A stretch of DNA of 56,603 bases, the filler included, from Nitrospiraceae bacterium (GTDB lineage Bacteria; Nitrospirota; Nitrospiria; Nitrospirales; UBA2166): assembly GCA_002726235.1 (NCBI GenBank). It is 3 parts of 3 records of this genome, joined end to end, with 100 filler letters (N's around TTAATTAATTAA, not from the genome) between each part and the next. Parts side by side here need not be neighbours in the genome. Positions count along the whole stretch, not along the records: positions 1 to 22,889 come from PBSN01000014.1; 2 more parts are not named here. One strand, 5' to 3'. Each line of letters begins with the position of its first letter. The stretch's first letter is position 1. Shown one piece after another: positions 3,001 to 9,000 of the stretch. The position numbers are program-made.

Positions 3001-6000
3001 TGACGCCCAATCAAATTTCCCTGTTCTCGTTTCTGTGTTCCATGATTGCCGCCGGACTGTTTGCTCTGGGCGGCTATCTCGCCTTGCTTCTGGGAGGCGT
3101 TCTTGCCCAATTCGCATCTGTCATCGATGGGTGCGACGGGGAAGTGGCTAGGCTCAAGTACCAAAGCAGCGACTTCGGCGGTTGGTTCGATGCGGTGCTG
3201 GACCGTTATGCCGATGCGTTTCTCCTCTTTGGCTTGACGTGGCATGTGCTCCTCACGGAGCCGAATGGTTGGATCCTCTTCATCGGTGTCATGGCCATTA
3301 TCGGATCCTTCATGCTGAGTTATACGGCGGATAAGTACGATAACCTCATGCGTGAACGATTCGAGTTGAGGGGTATGGCCATGATACGGATGGGACGTGA
3401 TGTGCGGGTATTGCTCATCTTCATTGGTGCAGTGATGAATCTCGTACTCCCTGTGCTGGTGGCGATCGTGGTGGTGATGAATATCGAGACAATACGCCGG
3501 ATGAAGGTCGCGTCGGATGCGTAGTGTTGAGTCTGCCAAACAGAGCATCAGGCGGATTGTCGGCGGCTCGCGCGTGCCCGAGGACCCACGCCATGCTGAC
3601 AACACCCTAGAGTGGCTGTTGCGCTTTGCACCGGATGCCGACGATGCTCTGCAATTGGCAGCGCTGGCCCACGACATCGACCGAGCCATCGAAGAAAGCA
3701 AGACCCCGCGTGCGGACTTTGAGGATTATGATGCCTTCAAGGCTGCCCATGCCCGTCATGGCGCGGAAATACTGCGCCCGATTCTCGTCGCATGTGGCGT
3801 GGAAGGCCATATCGTGAACGAGGCGTGCCGTTTGGTAAAGGTCCACGAGGTGGGAGGAGATCCCAGCTCCGATCTACTCAAGGATGCCGACAGTGTCTCC
3901 TATTTCGACGTCAATCTCCCGCTCTATTACGAGCGTGAGGGGTGGGATGAGGCCAAACGGAGATCACTCTGGGGATATCGGCGTCTGTCGCCACCGGCGA
4001 AAGAGATTGTCAAACACATTGTCTACCAGGAGCAAGCGCTGGTGCGTTTGATGCAGGAGGTCATTCATGAAGCTCGCGAATGTCTTCAACCGACTCTGCA
4101 ATGAAGCCGACCACCATTGCCTCTCCTAGTGTACCATGAGTGGGTGGACGAATATCGAACTGACCTTTCCCCCTTGATTAAGTTCAGCGAGCGCGACGAT
4201 GCTGTGAAAGACTATCACCGCCAAAACAGAGCTCTCCCTGAAGAGACCCGATACGACATCCTGATTCTAAACGCGTCATCTAGAATGGCGTTACCCGTCA
4301 CGCATCCGCGCTTCTTCCCTCAGGGCCTACTCTCGCCATAAGATCAAGAGCTATATAGCTAGCCTCCCTTTCAAATTATCTTCACCCCCTGCTTACGATC
4401 TCAATCCAAAAATGTGTGATGCGCTAAAATTGTCGAGTATTGTTGTGTTCGACTCAATGTTGATTTAGGTCGGAATCAACTTCGGCCCTATTTACAGGCT
4501 CTTCAAAGCATTGTTCAAGAAATGTGGGGTTGGCACGAAATCTGCTTTCCCCCATTGGAGGGAATCGTATACGAGGATAGCTCACATGCTGAATTTCTGG
4601 AAAACAGGGTAGATGCGAAGCCTTTTGAAAGGAAACGTCGATCGTCAAGCTCGAAAGGTGAAGGTTCGCCAGAATCCTGTCGACCGTTGGGCATATACCA
4701 CGTGTGGGTATTGCTCGACCGGATGCGGCATTGAAGTGGGAGTGAAAGATGCTCGTGCGGTGTCCGTGCGAGGAACCAATGCCCATCCGGTCAATCAAGG
4801 CAAACTATGCTTGAAAGGCATTTGGGAGTTCGAGGCGATTAACGCACCGAATCGCGGGACACATCCGTTGATGCGCGAGGAACCGACTCAGCCATATCGT
4901 CGGGTCTCCTGGGATGCGGCACTCACGCAAACGGCGACAGAATTTCGTCGCATTATGGACACGTACGGTCCGGACGCGCTTGCGGTCGTCAGCACCGGCC
5001 AGATCTATACCGAGGAATTCTACGCCCTCGGTAAACTTGTGCGGGGGGGACTTGGGACAAACAACTACGACGGAAACACCACCTTATGCATGGCCAGTGC
5101 GGTATCAGGCTACAAGCGATCCTTTGGATCCGATGGCCCCCCAGGATGCTACGACGATTTTGATGAGACGGAGTGCCTGCTCGCATTCGGATCGAATCTT
5201 GTGGAATGTCATCCGGTAATTTACTACCGGCTCAAGATGGCGCTCGAGCGCCGTCGATTTCCTGTTATCGTCATCGATCCACGCGTCACTGTGTTCGCAC
5301 AAAACGCGGATATTCACCTTGCCATCAATCCTGGGACGGACTTGGTATTGCTCAATGCCCTCGCTCACGTGATTTTGGAAGAACGCCTCGCTGATCAGAA
5401 ATACATTGAAACCCATACCAGCGATTTCGATGCATTTGTGGAAACGGNGACGAAATACTCCCCTGAATACGCGGAGCCGATCACTGGAATTCCAGCATCC
5501 ACAACTCGAACAGTTGCCAGGATCTATGGCAACGCAAATGCTGCGATGTCCATTTGGACAATGGGAATCAATCAGTCTGTGCATGGATCAGATGGCGTGG
5601 TCGCTATTAACAATCTCTCGTTGCTTACAGGAAACATCGGAAAACCAGGCGCAACGTCGCTCTCTATCACTGGCCAGTGTAATGCCATGGGCACCCGTGA
5701 ATTTTCGTCATGCTCAGGACTGCCGGGCTATCGCCTGCTCGAAAATCAGGAACACCGGGCGCAAATCGCGCAATATTGGGGTGTGGATGAATCATTCTTT
5801 CCCCTTAAACGAGGCAAAACGATGACCGATATCTTTCCCGCCATTGAGGCAGGAACCATCAAGGGTCTTTGGCTCATCGCGACCAATCCTGCGACATCAA
5901 TGCCGCAAACCCAGCGGATTGCAAAGAGTTTGAGAAACCTTGAGTTTCTTGTCGTCCAAGACGTGTTCGAAAATGTGGATTCAGCAGAGTTTGCCCACGT

Positions 6001-9000
6001 GTTTCTCCCCGCTGCGATGTGGGCTGAAAAAACGGGAACATTTACAAATTCTGAGCGCCGAGTGGGATTAGTCAGAAAAGCAGTCGAGCCTCCCGTCGAA
6101 GCGAGAAGCGATTTAGAGATTTTCTGTGCGATGGCAGAAAAACTTGGCGTTGGACACCTTCTCCCGTCAACAGCACCTGAAATGATGTTCGATGAGTTCA
6201 AAACGATCAGTAAAGGACGTCCATGTGACTATTCCGGACTGAGTTACGACGCATTGGAACGAGAAGGTGGTATCNAGTGGCCTGCTCCAACAGGGGAGGG
6301 AAGCCCACGGCTGTATACCGATGGACGCTTTCACACCGCCAATCGAAAAGCGCGCTTCATTGCGTTAGAGTTTCACGATACCAACGAACGCCCTGACGAT
6401 CAGTATCCCTTCTGGTTGAATACTGGTCGAGTCATTGAGCACTGGCACACGAGAACCAAGACGGGACAGATTGGGAACCTGAACAAATTCTCGCCTATCC
6501 CCTACGTGGAAATGAACTCGATTGATGCCAACCGATTGGGGATTAACTCGTTAGATTCGGTACGGGTGATCTCAAGACGTGGCCAAATAACCGTCATCGT
6601 ACAGGTGACAGAATGCGTCGCCCCAAGGATGGTGTTCATTCCATTCCATTTTGCGAAGGGTGCGAATTTCATGACCCTAGGTCTCTTGGATCCATACTCA
6701 CGGCAGCCGGCGTTTAAGCAGTCTGCAGTCAAGATTGAGAAGGTGGTGTCGAGTTGAGTGNTTCGAATATCAAATCNGACAGCTCATTGAGCTCAAGCCG
6801 TTATGATCTCNCTGTTGACATCGAGACGCCCTTGCCACAAAAGGCGGAATATGGAGAAGCTGGGGAAATTGCAAAAGCGCTATGTCAAAACAGCTGTGAT
6901 CCCACGGATGAATTCAAAGCAACCCAGCAGGTCGGATTTATCTTCCGAGCTGATAATTGTATCGGGTGTCACTCGTGCGAGGCGGCCTGTAGTGAAAAGA
7001 ATGGGTTGCCATCGCATATGGCTTGGAGAAAAGTCGGCTATGTGGAAGGCGGCACCTATCCTGACTACACTCGAGTCAACATCTCGATGGCCTGTAACCA
7101 TTGCGATGATCCCGTCTGTCTCAAGGGATGTCCAACCGGTGCCTATGTAAAGTATCAGGATACTGGTGCCGTTATCGTTGATAGTGACATCTGTTTCGGC
7201 TGTCAGTATTGCACGTGGGTGTGTCCGTATGAGGCGCCCGCATTTAACCCTGAAACAGGTTCGGTCACCAAGTGTAATATGTGTGTCGATCGCTTGGACG
7301 CTGGGCTTCAACCGATGTGTGTCGATGCCTGTCTCGGACACGCGCTGGAATTTGGAGCAATAGACAAGTATGAACGGGACAATCCTGCGGCGCTGACGCA
7401 CATTGCTGGGTTTCCAGATCCGTCTATCAGTAAACCGAACGTGCGGTTCGATCAGAGGCGATCACTTCCCACAACTATGAAGCGCGCCGACACTGAGCTC
7501 ATACAGTATCAGTCCCTCACTTCATCGAATGAAAACACCCGAATCAATGAGATCGGTCTCCCGTATCAGTCGAGCGGAAAAACACATTCAGCGAGTACGG
7601 GAGAGAATCACGGAAGCAAAACGAGCAAGCAGGTGCCCTGGTCTTCCTTGCACTCCCACGAAACCTCCCTTGTGGTGTTTACCCTGCTCGCTCAGTTCGT
7701 CGTTGGAGCGTTCCTCTCGCTCTGGAGTCTACCGCTGATAACATCGGGTGCCGGCTTGAAGACCAGCCTGGTCGGTCCAACACAGGCGATCCTTGTCGGC
7801 ATCACAACGTTATTGGCGGTGGGGCTTGGAATTTCAACCTCACACCTTGGAAAACCGTGGAGATGCTATCGGTCATTGAACAACCTGCGGTATTCCTGGG
7901 TGAGTCGCGAGATTCTCGCGATGGGATTATTCTTTGGTAGCTTGACCCTGTTCACAGCACTGACGTTTCTCGGAGTTTCAGGTTCGTGGGCGCAATGGGG
8001 ATTGGGATCTGCCGTAGCGATGTGTGGAATTGCCAGCATCTTTACCATGTCGAAGATCTATATGATCCCGGCAAGACCTTTCTGGAATCACCCACACACG
8101 TGGGTTTCCTTCTATTCATCGGCCTTCGTTCTGGGCCCGTACCTCGTTGCGGCTGTGCTCGGATTGCTGACCGCGATTCCAGTGATATTCCTTGCTGCGT
8201 TCACAGCGGTTGCGTTAACCACGCAGGTGATTCAGATGACTTCCCAGCGTGTCCATCTGCAAGATCTCGCGTCTGAACCGCAGATGAACAACAAGCGGAA
8301 TCGATCGTTTGGTCCATTGTCGACAAACACACAAGCCGCTCTCCATGTGCAAGGCGAAGCTCAGGCATCTTATGATCAACTTCTCGGAAAATTCGAACGG
8401 TTTCAGAAGATGAGAAGTGCACTCTCGCTCGTCACAATCAGCATGAGCGCAATCACCCTTGTGGCAGCGATTGCGACTAGCCTGTTCTGGAGCGGTCCAT
8501 CGGGAGTGATGAGCCTTGTGAATAGCGTGGTCCCGTGGGTGACTCTGTCCCTCTTTGTGACCGTGCTGGCCGGCGAACTCATCGGCCGTGCGTTGTTCTA
8601 CTCCGTTGTCACCCCCACCACCATGCCAGGATCTCTCTTCATCAAAAACCGTGGCTTCGAACAATTGGCCAGGGACACTGGCTTAGCTAACGATCCCATG
8701 GTTGGGGTTTCGCTGCACTGACTTGTAGCCAGAGACAGATGCCCTGGTGCTAGAAAGCTGGGACAGCTTCGTTCATTGCTTGTACAGTAAGCAAGTACCA
8801 TTTCTCATTCGTGGAGAGAGCCTTGTCCGCTCAGGCGCCTCGTCGAGTTGAAGTAAAGACGATTTCTCGTTTCTGCCGAAGACCGCGTAGGCGAGAAGCA
8901 CAAACAAGAACACAAAGGTGGCGGGAATCACCAGTTTGATAAAGGCACCTTCAGTGAAGNAGCCAGCGATGCCCACCACTGACGGAAGTACAATCGTAAT

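Follow-up and report, generated by a model that had tools for sequence, protein, structure and literature searches.

A nasA-type gene paired with a fused ferredoxin/DmsC-like anchor: a predicted cytoplasm-facing quinol:nitrate oxidoreductase

Two overlapping genes in the window (the whole stretch of DNA analysed here, 56,603 nucleotides from a Nitrospiraceae bacterium) probably encode a two-polypeptide, membrane-bound, cytoplasm-facing quinol:nitrate oxidoreductase that would catalyse the first step of nitrate assimilation, a reading to which we assign a probability of about 0.68. It is built on domain make-up, cofactor ligands, the missing signal peptide, synteny and distribution, all of which can be read directly from the sequences. 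In the literature searched, a description of a NasA protein paired with a fused iron-sulfur/DmsC anchor was not found: a family phylogeny of 2020 is explicit that subunits of this kind are missing from the Nas clade, and a term search of a review of the NrfD family returned 0 occurrences of ‘fused’, ‘fusion’ and ‘nitrate reductase’, as an earlier note on this DNA had also reported. The same note had proposed a membrane-bound, quinol-linked nitrate reductase, and that proposal is supported, every computable element of it having passed its test.

The catalytic subunit

The first gene (nasA-type; 4613..6757, plus strand, like the features within it) starts with ATG and encodes 714 residues carrying the Pfam domains Molybdop_Fe4S4, Molybdopterin and Molydop_binding, as expected of a Mo-bisPGD catalytic subunit. 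Its top match in the PDB is the NapA protein of D. desulfuricans (2jim; 1.4e-144 over query residues 21-710), which reproduces the match of 1e-144 from residue 21 reported before. The four cysteines of the FS0 [4Fe-4S] cluster (C31, C34, C38 and C66; 4703..4810), located by their Cys positions, are invariant in both alignments in which they were compared (A4 and A5). A HMMER alignment to NapA places the molybdenum-ligand motif L158-C159-M-A-S-A-V164 at 5084..5104, where LCMASAV is identical to the D. desulfuricans motif and recurs in classical NasA, while E. coli FdhF has U-H; the motif supports assignment of the subunit to the nitrate-reductase type.

Annotation of this gene is less uniform. 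Formate dehydrogenase alpha ranks first in NCBIfam and yet, as had been noted, falls below its cut-off (614.3 bits vs 666.25); NasC (519, cut-off 1100) and NasA_Halo (512) lie far below theirs, and no NCBIfam equivalog reaches its curated cut-off. Relatives at 89-100% carry the source name ‘nitrate reductase’, and JGI sources label close relatives ‘assimilatory nitrate reductase catalytic subunit’. Among the four PF00384 proteins found in this genome (90.65% complete), only the window’s NasA resembles a nitrate reductase, and nitrate is its likely substrate, judging from sequence and context.

The protein begins with a basic leader (residues 1-30; 4613..4702), about 25 residues of which are conserved in homologues, the Pseudomonadota form reading MLFGRKxKNPIxI...WKYTT. 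Because this leader has no hydrophobic core, it is not a Tat signal. The twin-arginine motif reported as absent from five N-termini proved absent more widely, with neither a Tat motif nor a hydrophobic h-region in any of 62 homologues, which supports a cytoplasmic location for NasA.

The fused ferredoxin/anchor protein

The second gene (6754..8721, plus strand throughout) encodes a predicted quinol-oxidising protein of 655 residues, a four-cluster ferredoxin fused to a DmsC-like anchor. Its TTG start and the TGA stop of the nasA-type gene overlap in the four nucleotides TTGA (6754-6757), so that both the reading frames and the overlap given in the earlier note are confirmed. N bases at 6761, 6777 and 6811 fall within its first 20 codons; the start at 6754 is nevertheless credible, because three close homologues have the same long N-terminus and start at this position with MSASNIK or MSISNV.

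The proposed fusion of DmsB-like and DmsC-like parts is borne out by Pfam (Fer4_11 at residues 111-202; DmsC at residues 302-617, 90.9 bits) and by colinearity with the separate proteins. The DmsB-like ferredoxin domain (residues 59-205; 6928..7368) holds 16 cysteines in four groups (69/72/75/79, 114/117/122/126, 147/150/153/157 and 174/177/189/193), all of them invariant across 112 sequences. It scores 168.6 bits against TIGR02951 (DMSO_dmsB), below the cut-off of 214, and its Foldseek matches are PcrB, FdnH, ArrB and PsrB. In the sequence comparisons NarH is a distant match of this domain. A conserved linker (7369..7659; motifs FPDP...PN.RF...R.D...Y), in which F220, N229, R231, F232, R244 and D246 are invariant, becomes rich in Lys and Arg just ahead of helix 1.

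The membrane domain (7660..8607) has the DmsC/NrfD fold by Pfam, hydropathy and AF2, and can be aligned with E. coli DmsC from end to end. The estimate of about eight hydrophobic segments can be made firm: the hydropathy profile of the alignment contains eight, which match the long helices of the AF2 model (pTM 0.83; pLDDT > 90 for the membrane helices). PsrC (2vpw_C) superposes on this domain with a TM-score of 0.62, normalised to the target. A conserved, family-specific C-terminal tail (V.PTTMPG..F..N..FE..AR.TGLA....GV; 8608..8718), predicted to lie on the cytoplasmic side, is absent from E. coli DmsC in the alignment. More than 3,500 homologues share this architecture, and the full 8-helix domain is kept at about 40% identity across phyla.

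Linkage and distribution of the pair

In 76 of the 77 loci with upstream DNA (Pseudomonadota and Nitrospirota), NasA is encoded directly upstream of the fused gene in the same orientation, which extends the nine of nine counted before. An independent sample across the class Gammaproteobacteria agrees: the fused gene was present in 55/400 genomes and in-clade NasA in 58/401; 54 genomes had both, adjacent on one strand in 51, and all four cases of NasA alone stood at contig ends. The pair is retained even in a genome of 1.2 Mb (G731). Departures include a Nitrospirota locus (L060) with a nirA-like gene in place of nasA upstream of the fused gene, a genome (G618) whose fused gene stands alone for about 4 kb in each direction, and two genomes (G422 and G678) with the two genes on separate contigs.

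The pair had been described as a Nitrospirota feature conserved in four other families. Its presence in other families stands, the number does not (the fused gene occurs in eight families besides the window’s own), and the phylum is too narrow a frame: the pair is widespread across Gamma-, Beta- and Alphaproteobacteria, and the fused gene, found in 19/401 Nitrospirota, is far commoner in Pseudomonadota. As for the suggestion that only the pairing might be new, the fused proteins closest to the window’s own turn out to be partners of NasA as well, so that fusion and pairing go together. The NasA proteins of the pair form one 41-member clade apart from classical NasA (SH-aLRT 100), with identities of 65-75% inside it (the query’s own genome apart) and 34-42% to classical NasA. 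Contigs from the RNA libraries of one sample show matches of ≥99% to segments of the fused gene, which is weak evidence: RNA libraries can contain DNA, and N bases kept the junction of the two genes out of the comparison.

Gene neighbourhood

The nirBD genes reported beside the pair form a single fused gene (9362..12385, minus strand; 1007 aa, with a C-terminal Rieske_2 domain in Pfam) that encodes an NAD(P)H nitrite reductase and is convergent with the pair; NirB-like genes occur in 46/77 related loci. Further along the plus strand lie an outer-membrane porin of the Alginate_exp type (12754..14223; Pfam 1.6e-57), a NarK-type MFS nitrate/nitrite transporter (14141..15715; Pfam MFS_1), whose true start is probably downstream of 14141, and a PP2C phosphatase fused to a Ser/Thr kinase (15755..17464; Pfam), which travels with the transporter. 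Homologues of the transporter and of the PP2C-kinase were found in 27/77 and 21/77 related loci, respectively; several Ketobacter-type loci have neither nir nor narK within 8 kb. A weak homologue of the porin is present in a Methylophaga cluster.

Topology, quinol site and predicted complex

Lysine and arginine are strongly skewed towards the ferredoxin side of the membrane domain, with a mean of 15.0 per protein in the loops of that side vs 0.6 opposite, and the bias has the same direction in 112/112 homologues, in keeping with the orientation that the earlier note had proposed (the same comparison gives 3 vs 4 for E. coli DmsC). The 34 residues preceding helix 1 contain 5.6 such residues on average, and the loop of the putative quinol site 4.9, vs 2 in E. 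coli. No hydrophobic segment was found by hydropathy before residue 310, and we know of no route by which a four-cluster domain that folds ahead of helix 1 could be exported without a Tat signal. By the positive-inside rule and the absence of signals, the ferredoxin side would be cytoplasmic, and because of this charge bias the whole module would face the cytoplasm, inverted with respect to DmsABC.

The putative quinol-site loop (7834..7911) is likewise predicted on the cytoplasmic side. In an alignment of E. coli DmsC with eight family members (A2), S361, H364, S381 and E386 correspond to DmsC S62, H65, S82 and E87 and are invariant; across 112 sequences H364, S381 and E386 never vary and S361 hardly does. 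These DmsC residues are listed as its quinone site in PMC8076601, according to which replacement of H65 blocked quinol oxidation. The four conserved residues point to quinol as the donor.

A model of NasA with the fused protein gave an ipSAE of 0.89 (best of three controls, 0.00), with contact agreement of at least 83% between runs and partner pLDDT of at least 75. The ipSAE mark is reached by 116/157 solved complexes and 2/215 mismatched pairs, figures that apply only roughly here because alignments prepared for this analysis were used, and the pass may reflect likeness to similar complexes (CISM structures) already solved. In the model, NasA residues 64-71, in the FS0 region, face the first Cys group of the ferredoxin domain (68-84), and leader residues 6-21 lie within the predicted interface, on the ferredoxin domain. 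NasA thus probably binds the fused protein.

Proposed mechanism and alternatives

Nitrate would enter through the porin and the NarK-type transporter. Quinol would be oxidised where helices 2 and 3 end on the cytoplasmic side, at the DmsC-type site (S361/H364/S381/E386); the four [4Fe-4S] clusters of the ferredoxin part would relay its two electrons to FS0 and on to the Mo-bisPGD of NasA (ligand Cys159), where cytoplasmic nitrate would be reduced to nitrite, and the neighbouring NirBD would convert nitrite to ammonium. With the entire module oriented towards the cytoplasm, as predicted, neither protein would need export. In contrast to the classical NAD(P)H-dependent enzyme, which spends NAD(P)H directly on nitrate, electrons would leave at the level of quinone, and a coupling site such as complex I may lie on their way there; lithotrophs might be spared reverse electron flow.

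The same complex in the same orientation could serve a mainly dissimilatory purpose, as a respiratory or redox-balancing, cytoplasmic counterpart of Nap through which the quinone pool unloads electrons onto nitrate; energy would be conserved either upstream or by the NrfD-like domain, and assimilation would be a by-product. A quinol-linked CISM plan is characteristic of respiratory enzymes (PMC8076601), and some loci, among them a Ketobacter locus (L033) and three others (L010, L012 and L016), show neither nir nor narK in the surrounding 8 kb. In at least 14 genomes, moreover, a classical NAD(P)H-type NasA coexists with the pair, often within one cluster, which suggests that the two types share out the work. 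This reading is nonetheless unlikely, given that most loci place the pair within nirBD/NarK/kinase clusters, that the catalytic subunit groups with Nas and not with Nar, and that the pair survives in the reduced 1.2-Mb genome; moreover, with one and the same side of the membrane predicted for the quinol site and for the active site, no redox loop would be formed. That the fused protein is a mere membrane tether and iron-sulfur relay, fed by a soluble donor (NirB/NADH, ferredoxin or flavodoxin), fits the Nitrospirota locus L060, where the fused gene accompanies a ferredoxin-type NirA-like siroheme reductase. To our knowledge, moreover, the known Nas enzymes all use soluble donors. PMC7331816 is consistent with this. 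However, a plain tether would not require conservation of an 8-helix domain at some 40% identity across phyla, let alone the near-complete invariance of the four quinone-site residues described above, and we consider it improbable.

Two further readings carry little weight beside a cytoplasmic quinol:nitrate oxidoreductase. NasA might act on formate, chlorate or another oxyanion, its nitrate context being coincidental, as the first rank of Fdh-alpha and the unreached equivalog cut-offs would allow; with a Cys-Met-Ala-Ser ligand motif as in NapA/NasA and not U/C-His, relatives named nitrate reductase by their sources, and a position beside the fused gene in 76/77 loci, mostly with nirB and narK, this is very improbable. 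A periplasm-facing module like DmsABC, the default for DmsC-anchored enzymes in PMC8076601, is already disfavoured and is the hardest to credit: neither protein has a Tat or Sec signal, the charge bias places the ferredoxin side inside in every one of the 112 sequences, and the folded four-cluster domain precedes helix 1.

Comparison with known systems

The only N-side CISM precedent named in the available portion of PMC8076601 is SoeABC, a sulfite:quinone oxidoreductase with an NrfD-like anchor; the hypothesis there is that its A and B subunits lie on the N-side (cytoplasmic side). The comparison with the window’s system is one of description, and by description Soe has separate subunits and an anchor of the NrfD/PsrC type, and electrons run from a sulfur-compound substrate to quinone. 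E. coli DmsABC shares the plan of a catalytic subunit, a four-[4Fe-4S] protein and a haem-free 8-helix anchor; DmsB followed by DmsC is colinear with the fused protein, in which the quinone-site residues are conserved. Here, however, the B and C parts form one polypeptide, which a conserved C-terminal tail extends; a Tat signal is missing, the predicted orientation is inverted, and the catalytic subunit belongs to the Nas/Nap/Fdh clade instead of the DmsA clade.

NarGHI is also membrane-bound, with a cytoplasmic nitrate site supplied with quinol electrons through a four-cluster subunit, as is predicted for the window’s system. Its NarI anchor is a di-haem b protein that takes up quinol on the periplasmic side, an arrangement that makes an electrogenic loop, and the NarG ligand is Asp, whereas the anchor here is haem-free, the ligand is Cys and the quinol site is predicted to be cytoplasmic. 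The Nap system (NapAB with NapGH or NapC) is quinol-linked and non-electrogenic, and D. desulfuricans NapA is the nearest solved catalytic subunit (1.4e-144); Nap is nevertheless exported by Tat to the periplasm, unlike the window’s NasA, which has no Tat signal, and its quinol dehydrogenases NapC and NapGH are unrelated to DmsC.

Classical assimilatory enzymes comprise the NasA of Klebsiella, Pseudomonas and Azotobacter, with a C-terminal 2Fe-2S domain and an NAD(P)H flavoprotein, together with B. subtilis NasC and the ferredoxin-linked NarB of cyanobacteria. The window’s enzyme resembles them in being a cytoplasmic Mo-bisPGD protein with FS0, a Cys in LCMA(S/T)AV, no Tat signal and a place in nirB/narK clusters. 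It differs in its separate clade (34-42% identity) and in having neither a BFD 2Fe-2S tail nor a NasB-like flavoprotein, features that accompany the classical NasA copies at two of the loci compared (L046 and L048); in their place, the window-type NasA has a conserved leader of about 25 residues and a membrane-bound four-cluster partner.

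Gene pair and genomic context

A molybdoenzyme gene of Nap/Nas type, followed across a 4-nt overlap by a gene for a fused FeS/DmsC protein, had been proposed in the earlier note, and both the open reading frames and their Pfam domains confirm that observation. The first gene (nasA; 4613-6757, + strand) encodes a NasA-type catalytic subunit of 714 residues, while the second (6754-8721, + strand) is a single reading frame for a ferredoxin/DmsC protein of 655 residues, with a TTG start that shares four bases with the TGA stop of nasA. The first 20 codons of this second gene contain three N bases (at 6761, 6777 and 6811); a database homologue at 97% identity (P0003) and two relatives at 71-77% begin at the same point, with MSASNIK or MSISNV, so that both the assigned start and the overlap are credible.

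Convergent with the pair lies a gene for a fused NirB-NirD nitrite reductase (9362-12385, - strand; 1007 residues, with a C-terminal Rieske_2 domain), unlike most proteobacterial loci, where nirB and nirD are separate genes. The neighbourhood also includes an Alginate_exp porin, a NarK-like MFS transporter, a PP2C-phosphatase/Ser-Thr-kinase fusion (15755-17464, + strand) and, further along, ModA and ModB. Just upstream of ModA/ModB, a TonB-dependent receptor is divided into two consecutive reading frames ('Plug', 19152-20321, then beta-barrel, 20325-21218, both + strand) with one stop between them, which points to disruption of the gene or to an error in the sequence. An Rfam scan of positions 3900-17600 gave no match at E <= 0.1, and a consensus scan gave three promoter-like sites (4.5 expected) and ten terminator-like sites (4.9 expected), none of them usefully placed.

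The joined contigs are separated by N runs at 22890-22989 and 49185-49284 (each consisting of 44 N, 12 bases and a further 44 N), across which gene order is meaningless. The middle piece (contig C15, 22990-49184) carries dnaA, dnaN, gyrB and gyrA together (26943-34349, - strand), and thus spans the chromosomal origin region. In the last piece (49285-56603), a reading frame of 1427 residues (52296-56579, + strand) with rve, rve_3, SH3_retrovirus and RVT_2 domains corresponds to a Ty1/copia-like Pol; because it looks like a eukaryotic retroelement, the contig that bears it may be foreign to the bacterial bin.

The catalytic subunit

The nasA product contains Fe4S4, Molybdopterin and Molydop_binding domains, together with the four cysteines (C31, C34, C38 and C66) that hold FS0, the [4Fe-4S] cluster of the catalytic subunit; all four are invariant in two alignments (A4 and A5). 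Among solved structures, its closest match is the monomeric D. desulfuricans NapA (2jim; 1.4e-144 across query residues 21-710), to which it is identical, when aligned, in the molybdenum-ligand stretch LCMASAV. The form LCMA(S/T)AV is common to the window protein and to two 'classical' NasA proteins taken from related loci, and in the same alignment E. coli FdhF (aligned as read with TGA as U) has U-H. Close relatives are annotated in their sources as 'nitrate reductase' or 'assimilatory nitrate reductase catalytic subunit'.

Two other assignments were considered and rejected. The formate dehydrogenase alpha model (TIGR01591) ranks first among NCBIfam models, as the earlier note had cautioned; that score was reproduced (614.3 bits, under the cut-off of 666.25), but the caveat fails as a pointer to formate, because the protein has the NasA-type motif, with C-M where FdhF has U-H. 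A Nar-type enzyme was set aside since the anchor is of DmsC type and the ferredoxin half of the partner reaches only 74.9 bits against NarH (cut-off 524); NarG models are absent from the catalytic subunit's 25 best NCBIfam matches. Scores of 519 against the NasC model NF047855 (cut-off 1100) and 511.7 against the NasA_Halo model NF041323 (cut-off 1000) place the protein outside both of those equivalogs.

A basic leader of about 25 residues opens all 62 readable homologue N-termini (MLFGRKxKNPIxIxDKxVxEWKYTT in Pseudomonadota; MRSLLKGNVDRQARKVKVRQNPVDRWAYTT in the window protein). As it leads directly into CxxCxxxC and lacks a hydrophobic core, it is not a Tat signal, and neither a Tat signal nor an h-region was found in any of the 62, which extends to a much larger set what had been noted earlier for five homologues. 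The gene product is thus predicted to be a cytoplasmic nitrate reductase of the Nas/Nap type.

A PF00384 search of the source genome (1.87 Mb, 90.65% complete) returned four proteins: the nasA product, two NuoG-like proteins and one AioA-like protein, which leaves the nasA product as the only nitrate-reductase candidate found there. No NarG/NXR-type protein was present among these matches, and no canonical nitrite oxidoreductase was found in the assembled 90.65% of this small marine Nitrospirales genome. The arsenite-oxidase-like large subunit (G000:C13:61069-62469; L099:1105-3795) scores 428.8 bits against TIGR02693, above the cut-off of 359.

The fused ferredoxin/DmsC partner

The second protein begins with a dicluster ferredoxin region (Fer4_11) and continues into a DmsC domain at residues 302-617 (90.9 bits; cut-off 22.3). 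Its ferredoxin half contains 16 cysteines in four CxxCxxC...C groups, all of them invariant in 112 homologues, as expected for four [4Fe-4S] clusters; its score of 168.6 against TIGR02951 lies under the cut-off of 214, so that it is best described as 'DmsB-like' rather than as a DmsB equivalog. The membrane half aligns with E. coli DmsC over its whole length, and in an alignment of that protein with eight family members (A2) the columns of S62, H65, S82 and E87, which correspond to S361, H364, S381 and E386 of the window protein, are invariant. According to a review of the NrfD family (PMC8076601), these four residues form the quinone site of DmsC, and replacement of H65 blocked quinol oxidation.

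The hydropathy profile of the alignment gives eight hydrophobic segments, none of them N-terminal of residue 310, and an AlphaFold2 model (of P0003, from 112 sequences) has eight long helices, a pTM of 0.83 and a membrane-domain pLDDT mostly above 90. Foldseek matched the ferredoxin half to PcrB, FdnH, ArrB and PsrB and the membrane half to PsrC and ActC, with no solved structure of a fused form among the matches. The same fusion is found in homologues of 543-667 residues, and more than 3,500 database homologues share this length and architecture. The partner is currently labelled 'DMSO reductase anchor/iron-sulfur subunit'. The protein is thus a DmsB-DmsC type of fusion, with a haem-free, eight-helix anchor that retains the quinone-site residues.

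Predicted complex and membrane orientation

A complex was modelled between NasA (from an alignment of 41 sequences) and residues 50-300 of the fused protein (from an alignment of 112). It scored 0.89, against 0.00 for the best of three controls, a value that may partly reflect likeness to related solved complexes; the 0.89 mark is reached by 116 of 157 solved complexes and by two of 215 mismatched pairs, a calibration that is rough here because our own alignments were used. Contacts are reproduced between runs at 83% or better, with a partner pLDDT of at least 75. In the modelled interface, NasA residues 64-71 (around the FS0 ligand C66) face the first cysteine group of the ferredoxin domain (residues 68-84), which is the geometry expected for an electron relay. 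NasA leader residues 6-21 also lie in this interface, and such contacts would give the conserved leader a role.

The orientation of integral membrane proteins generally follows the 'positive-inside' rule. With helix boundaries taken from the hydropathy profile, the loops on the ferredoxin side comprise the H364 loop, an IPARPFWNH loop, the long loop 6 and a C-terminal tail that is conserved in the fused family and absent from E. coli DmsC. Across 112 homologues these loops carry a mean of 15.0 Lys+Arg, versus 0.6 in the four opposite-side loops, and the ferredoxin side is the richer in every one of the 112 sequences; the same split of E. coli DmsC gives 3 versus 4. By that rule, this bias would place the ferredoxin domain and the quinol site in the cytoplasm and, taken together with the missing Tat signal, it supports the earlier prediction of a membrane enzyme that faces the cytoplasm. 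PMC8076601 assigns DmsAB, and the quinol sites of those NrfD-like subunits that have been solved, to the P-side, so that the module would be inverted relative to DmsABC; the only N-side enzyme of the CISM type (that of DmsABC) named there is SoeABC, as a hypothesis.

Distribution and linkage

Linkage was scored in the best 80 loci from species-representative genomes, of which 77 (all but three) include upstream DNA. A NasA-like gene lies directly upstream of the fused gene, on the same strand, in 76 of the 77, so that the conservation first reported for nine loci of nine holds on a far wider base. The exception is a Nitrospirota contig (L060:3-3888), where the upstream gene encodes a NirA-like siroheme reductase with two NIR_SIR repeats; this hints that the fused module might also feed a nitrite reductase. 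NirB-like genes occur in 46 of the 77 loci, a NarK-like transporter in 27 and the PP2C-kinase in 21. The latter fusion accompanies the transporter across phyla (in the window as well as in those 21 loci), which suggests phosphorylation control of nitrate uptake. In one Nitrospiria locus (L004:12361-16158), a MobA-like/HTH_8 protein, a MOT1-type molybdate transporter, MoeA and a MoCF-biosynthesis protein come directly after nasA, the fused gene and nirB, and form a self-contained molybdenum-enzyme island.

The best 80 loci are mostly gammaproteobacterial (Ketobacter, Oleispira, Colwellia, Thalassotalea, Methylophaga, Halieaceae, Porticoccus and Thiotrichaceae), and also include Betaproteobacteria (Gallionellaceae), Alphaproteobacteria (Magnetovibrio) and Nitrospirota. 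Cultured carriers include Parahaliea mediterranea DSM 21924 (Halieaceae) and isolates of Colwelliaceae and Alteromonadaceae. In an even sample of Nitrospirota the fused gene was found in 19 of 401 genomes, representing eight families besides the window's own; the spread within the phylum suggested earlier is therefore real, but the count of four other families was too low. The two large families of the order to which the window belongs were sampled with 75 and 40 genomes and gave none.

A comparable sample of the gammaproteobacterial class around Parahaliea gave the fused gene in 55 of 400 scored genomes. A NasA query of that class matched 180 of 401 genomes at E <= 1e-100 (a tally that includes G699, flagged as unpublished, on which no other result depends), and the matches are bimodal: 58 genomes have a copy at 65-100% identity, with reading frames of about 726-830 residues, and other hits show 34-42%, with frames of about 890-1000. 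The fused gene is also present in 54 of those 58 'in-clade' genomes, adjacent to nasA on one strand in 51; of the others, one (G661) has the two genes at two contig ends and two (G422 and G678) have them on different contigs. All four genomes with NasA only are cut by contig ends, and in one of them (G738) the opening residues of the fused gene are still visible. In the genome G618, the flanks of the fused gene, about 4 kb each, contain no NasA, and a genome of only 1.2 Mb (G731) retains the pair. No record of the plasmid collection covers at least 80% of the fused protein; the best 'long' match, in Proteus, arose from reading through a stop between distinct dmsB and dmsC genes that share a frame, and was discarded as a fusion.

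In a maximum-likelihood tree (quick mode) of 41 partner-linked NasA proteins and four classical NasA from the same loci, the 41 form one group (SH-aLRT 100), near the base of which the window protein groups with that of locus L001 (89% identity). Because of long outgroup branches and the mutual attraction of two outgroup rows, no root, donor or priority between Nitrospirota and Pseudomonadota is read from this tree. The classical copies bear a C-terminal 2Fe-2S domain of the BFD type and, in Methylophaga, the classical copy comes after a NasB-like flavoprotein. Classical NasA copies accompany the in-clade gene in at least 14 of the 58 genomes, and both systems share one cluster in Methylophaga (L046:10337-14199) and in a Gallionellaceae MAG (L048:7437-10247), which offer natural systems for comparing the two types.

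Expression

The stretch covering the fused gene was found in 20 public runs from 14 studies, labelled as marine and hydrothermal-vent metagenomes. Contigs from two RNA libraries of one sample contain six and two pieces of the gene at 99% identity or more; this comparison covers positions 6812-8959, RNA libraries can carry DNA, and contigs carry no information on level. One such contig extends 98 letters beyond the 5' end of that stretch and, if collinear, would cross the junction of the two genes, which falls short of proof of a single transcript. These data weakly suggest that the fused gene is expressed.

Proposed mechanism and alternatives

Both ubiquinol and menaquinol are reducing enough to drive nitrate reduction with a wide margin. 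In the proposed scheme, the DmsC-like domain would oxidise quinol at its cytoplasmic face, electrons would pass through the four clusters to FS0 and on to the molybdenum centre, and nitrate would be reduced in the cytoplasm, where NirBD would complete the reduction to ammonium. No redox loop is expected, since the quinol site and the active site would lie on the same side; any gain would arise upstream, in that electrons from NADH would pass complex I first and lithotrophs would avoid reverse electron flow. As far as sequence analysis goes, the evidence supports the reading of the pair as a membrane-bound, quinol-linked assimilatory nitrate reductase, with substrate, donor and topology all inferred, and over a wider range of organisms than the earlier note had envisaged.

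The main rival to that reading keeps the same mechanism and assigns it a dissimilatory role. Less probable are a fused protein that acts as a mere tether, for a catalytic subunit fed by a soluble donor, and an enzyme with another substrate, for which the formate model's first rank and the NasA-type motif have been weighed above. A periplasmic orientation, as for DmsAB, was rejected on the grounds that a Tat signal is missing and the Lys+Arg counts point to a cytoplasmic ferredoxin side.

A bolder extension seems rather improbable to us: that the pair represents a third, quinol-dependent class of assimilatory enzyme, possibly also respiratory, in which the nitrate-to-nitrite step would be energy-yielding because electrons from NADH can drive complex I before they reach the quinone pool. 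Were it true, the NrfD-like domain might also move protons, through its second four-helix bundle, and cytoplasmic nitrate respiration at low oxygen would be open to carriers that lack Nar or Nap, including many marine Gammaproteobacteria and those Nitrospirales that do not oxidise nitrite.

Should the quinol link of the assimilatory enzyme be real, the energy cost of nitrate assimilation would change for many marine heterotrophs, methylotrophs, sulfur and iron oxidisers and symbionts; an electron source would be explained for nasA genes that have no nasB-type partner; the partner would become a marker for genome annotation; and a natural, inverted and fused DmsBC would be at hand for the study of NrfD-fold anchors. 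Because cultured carriers exist, the question is directly testable.

Comparison with known systems

Descriptions of assimilatory nitrate reductases present them as soluble, with NAD(P)H, ferredoxin or flavodoxin as the electron donor. A full-text search, mostly outside subscription journals, returned no description of a Nas enzyme with a partner of the DmsB/DmsC or NrfC/NrfD type, and an earlier one is possible. A family phylogeny of 2020 (PMC7331816) states that no member of the Nas/Nap/Aio/Fdh clade has canonical four-cluster or membrane-anchor subunits, and uses that absence to argue that the association arose once; the gene pair contradicts that statement. The terms 'fused', 'fusion' and 'nitrate reductase' have no occurrence in PMC8076601, in agreement with an earlier remark that this review holds neither a fused form nor a nitrate reductase, and the matching passages of PMC10305379, PMC4013037, PMC12300631 and bioRxiv 10.1101/2020.10.19.345819 make no mention of the pairing. 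The architecture is common and apparently unrecognised among assimilatory nitrate reductases; it is built from known modules and is not a new kind of enzyme.

With the Nas enzymes, the catalytic subunit shares its domain architecture, the FS0 cysteines, a cysteine molybdenum ligand, the lack of a Tat signal and a nirB/narK context, while it falls under the cut-offs of the NasC and NasA_Halo equivalogs and forms a clade of its own. With DmsABC, the partner shares a 16-cysteine, four-cluster protein and an eight-helix anchor of the DmsC/NrfD fold with its quinone-site residues; in contrast to DmsABC, the window system has no Tat signal, is predicted to lie on the cytoplasmic rather than the periplasmic (P) side, and joins on one polypeptide the B and C subunits that are separate there. 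It differs from NarGHI in having neither the di-haem b anchor of NarI nor a NarG-type catalytic subunit, and its likeness to SoeABC is one of predicted N-side orientation.
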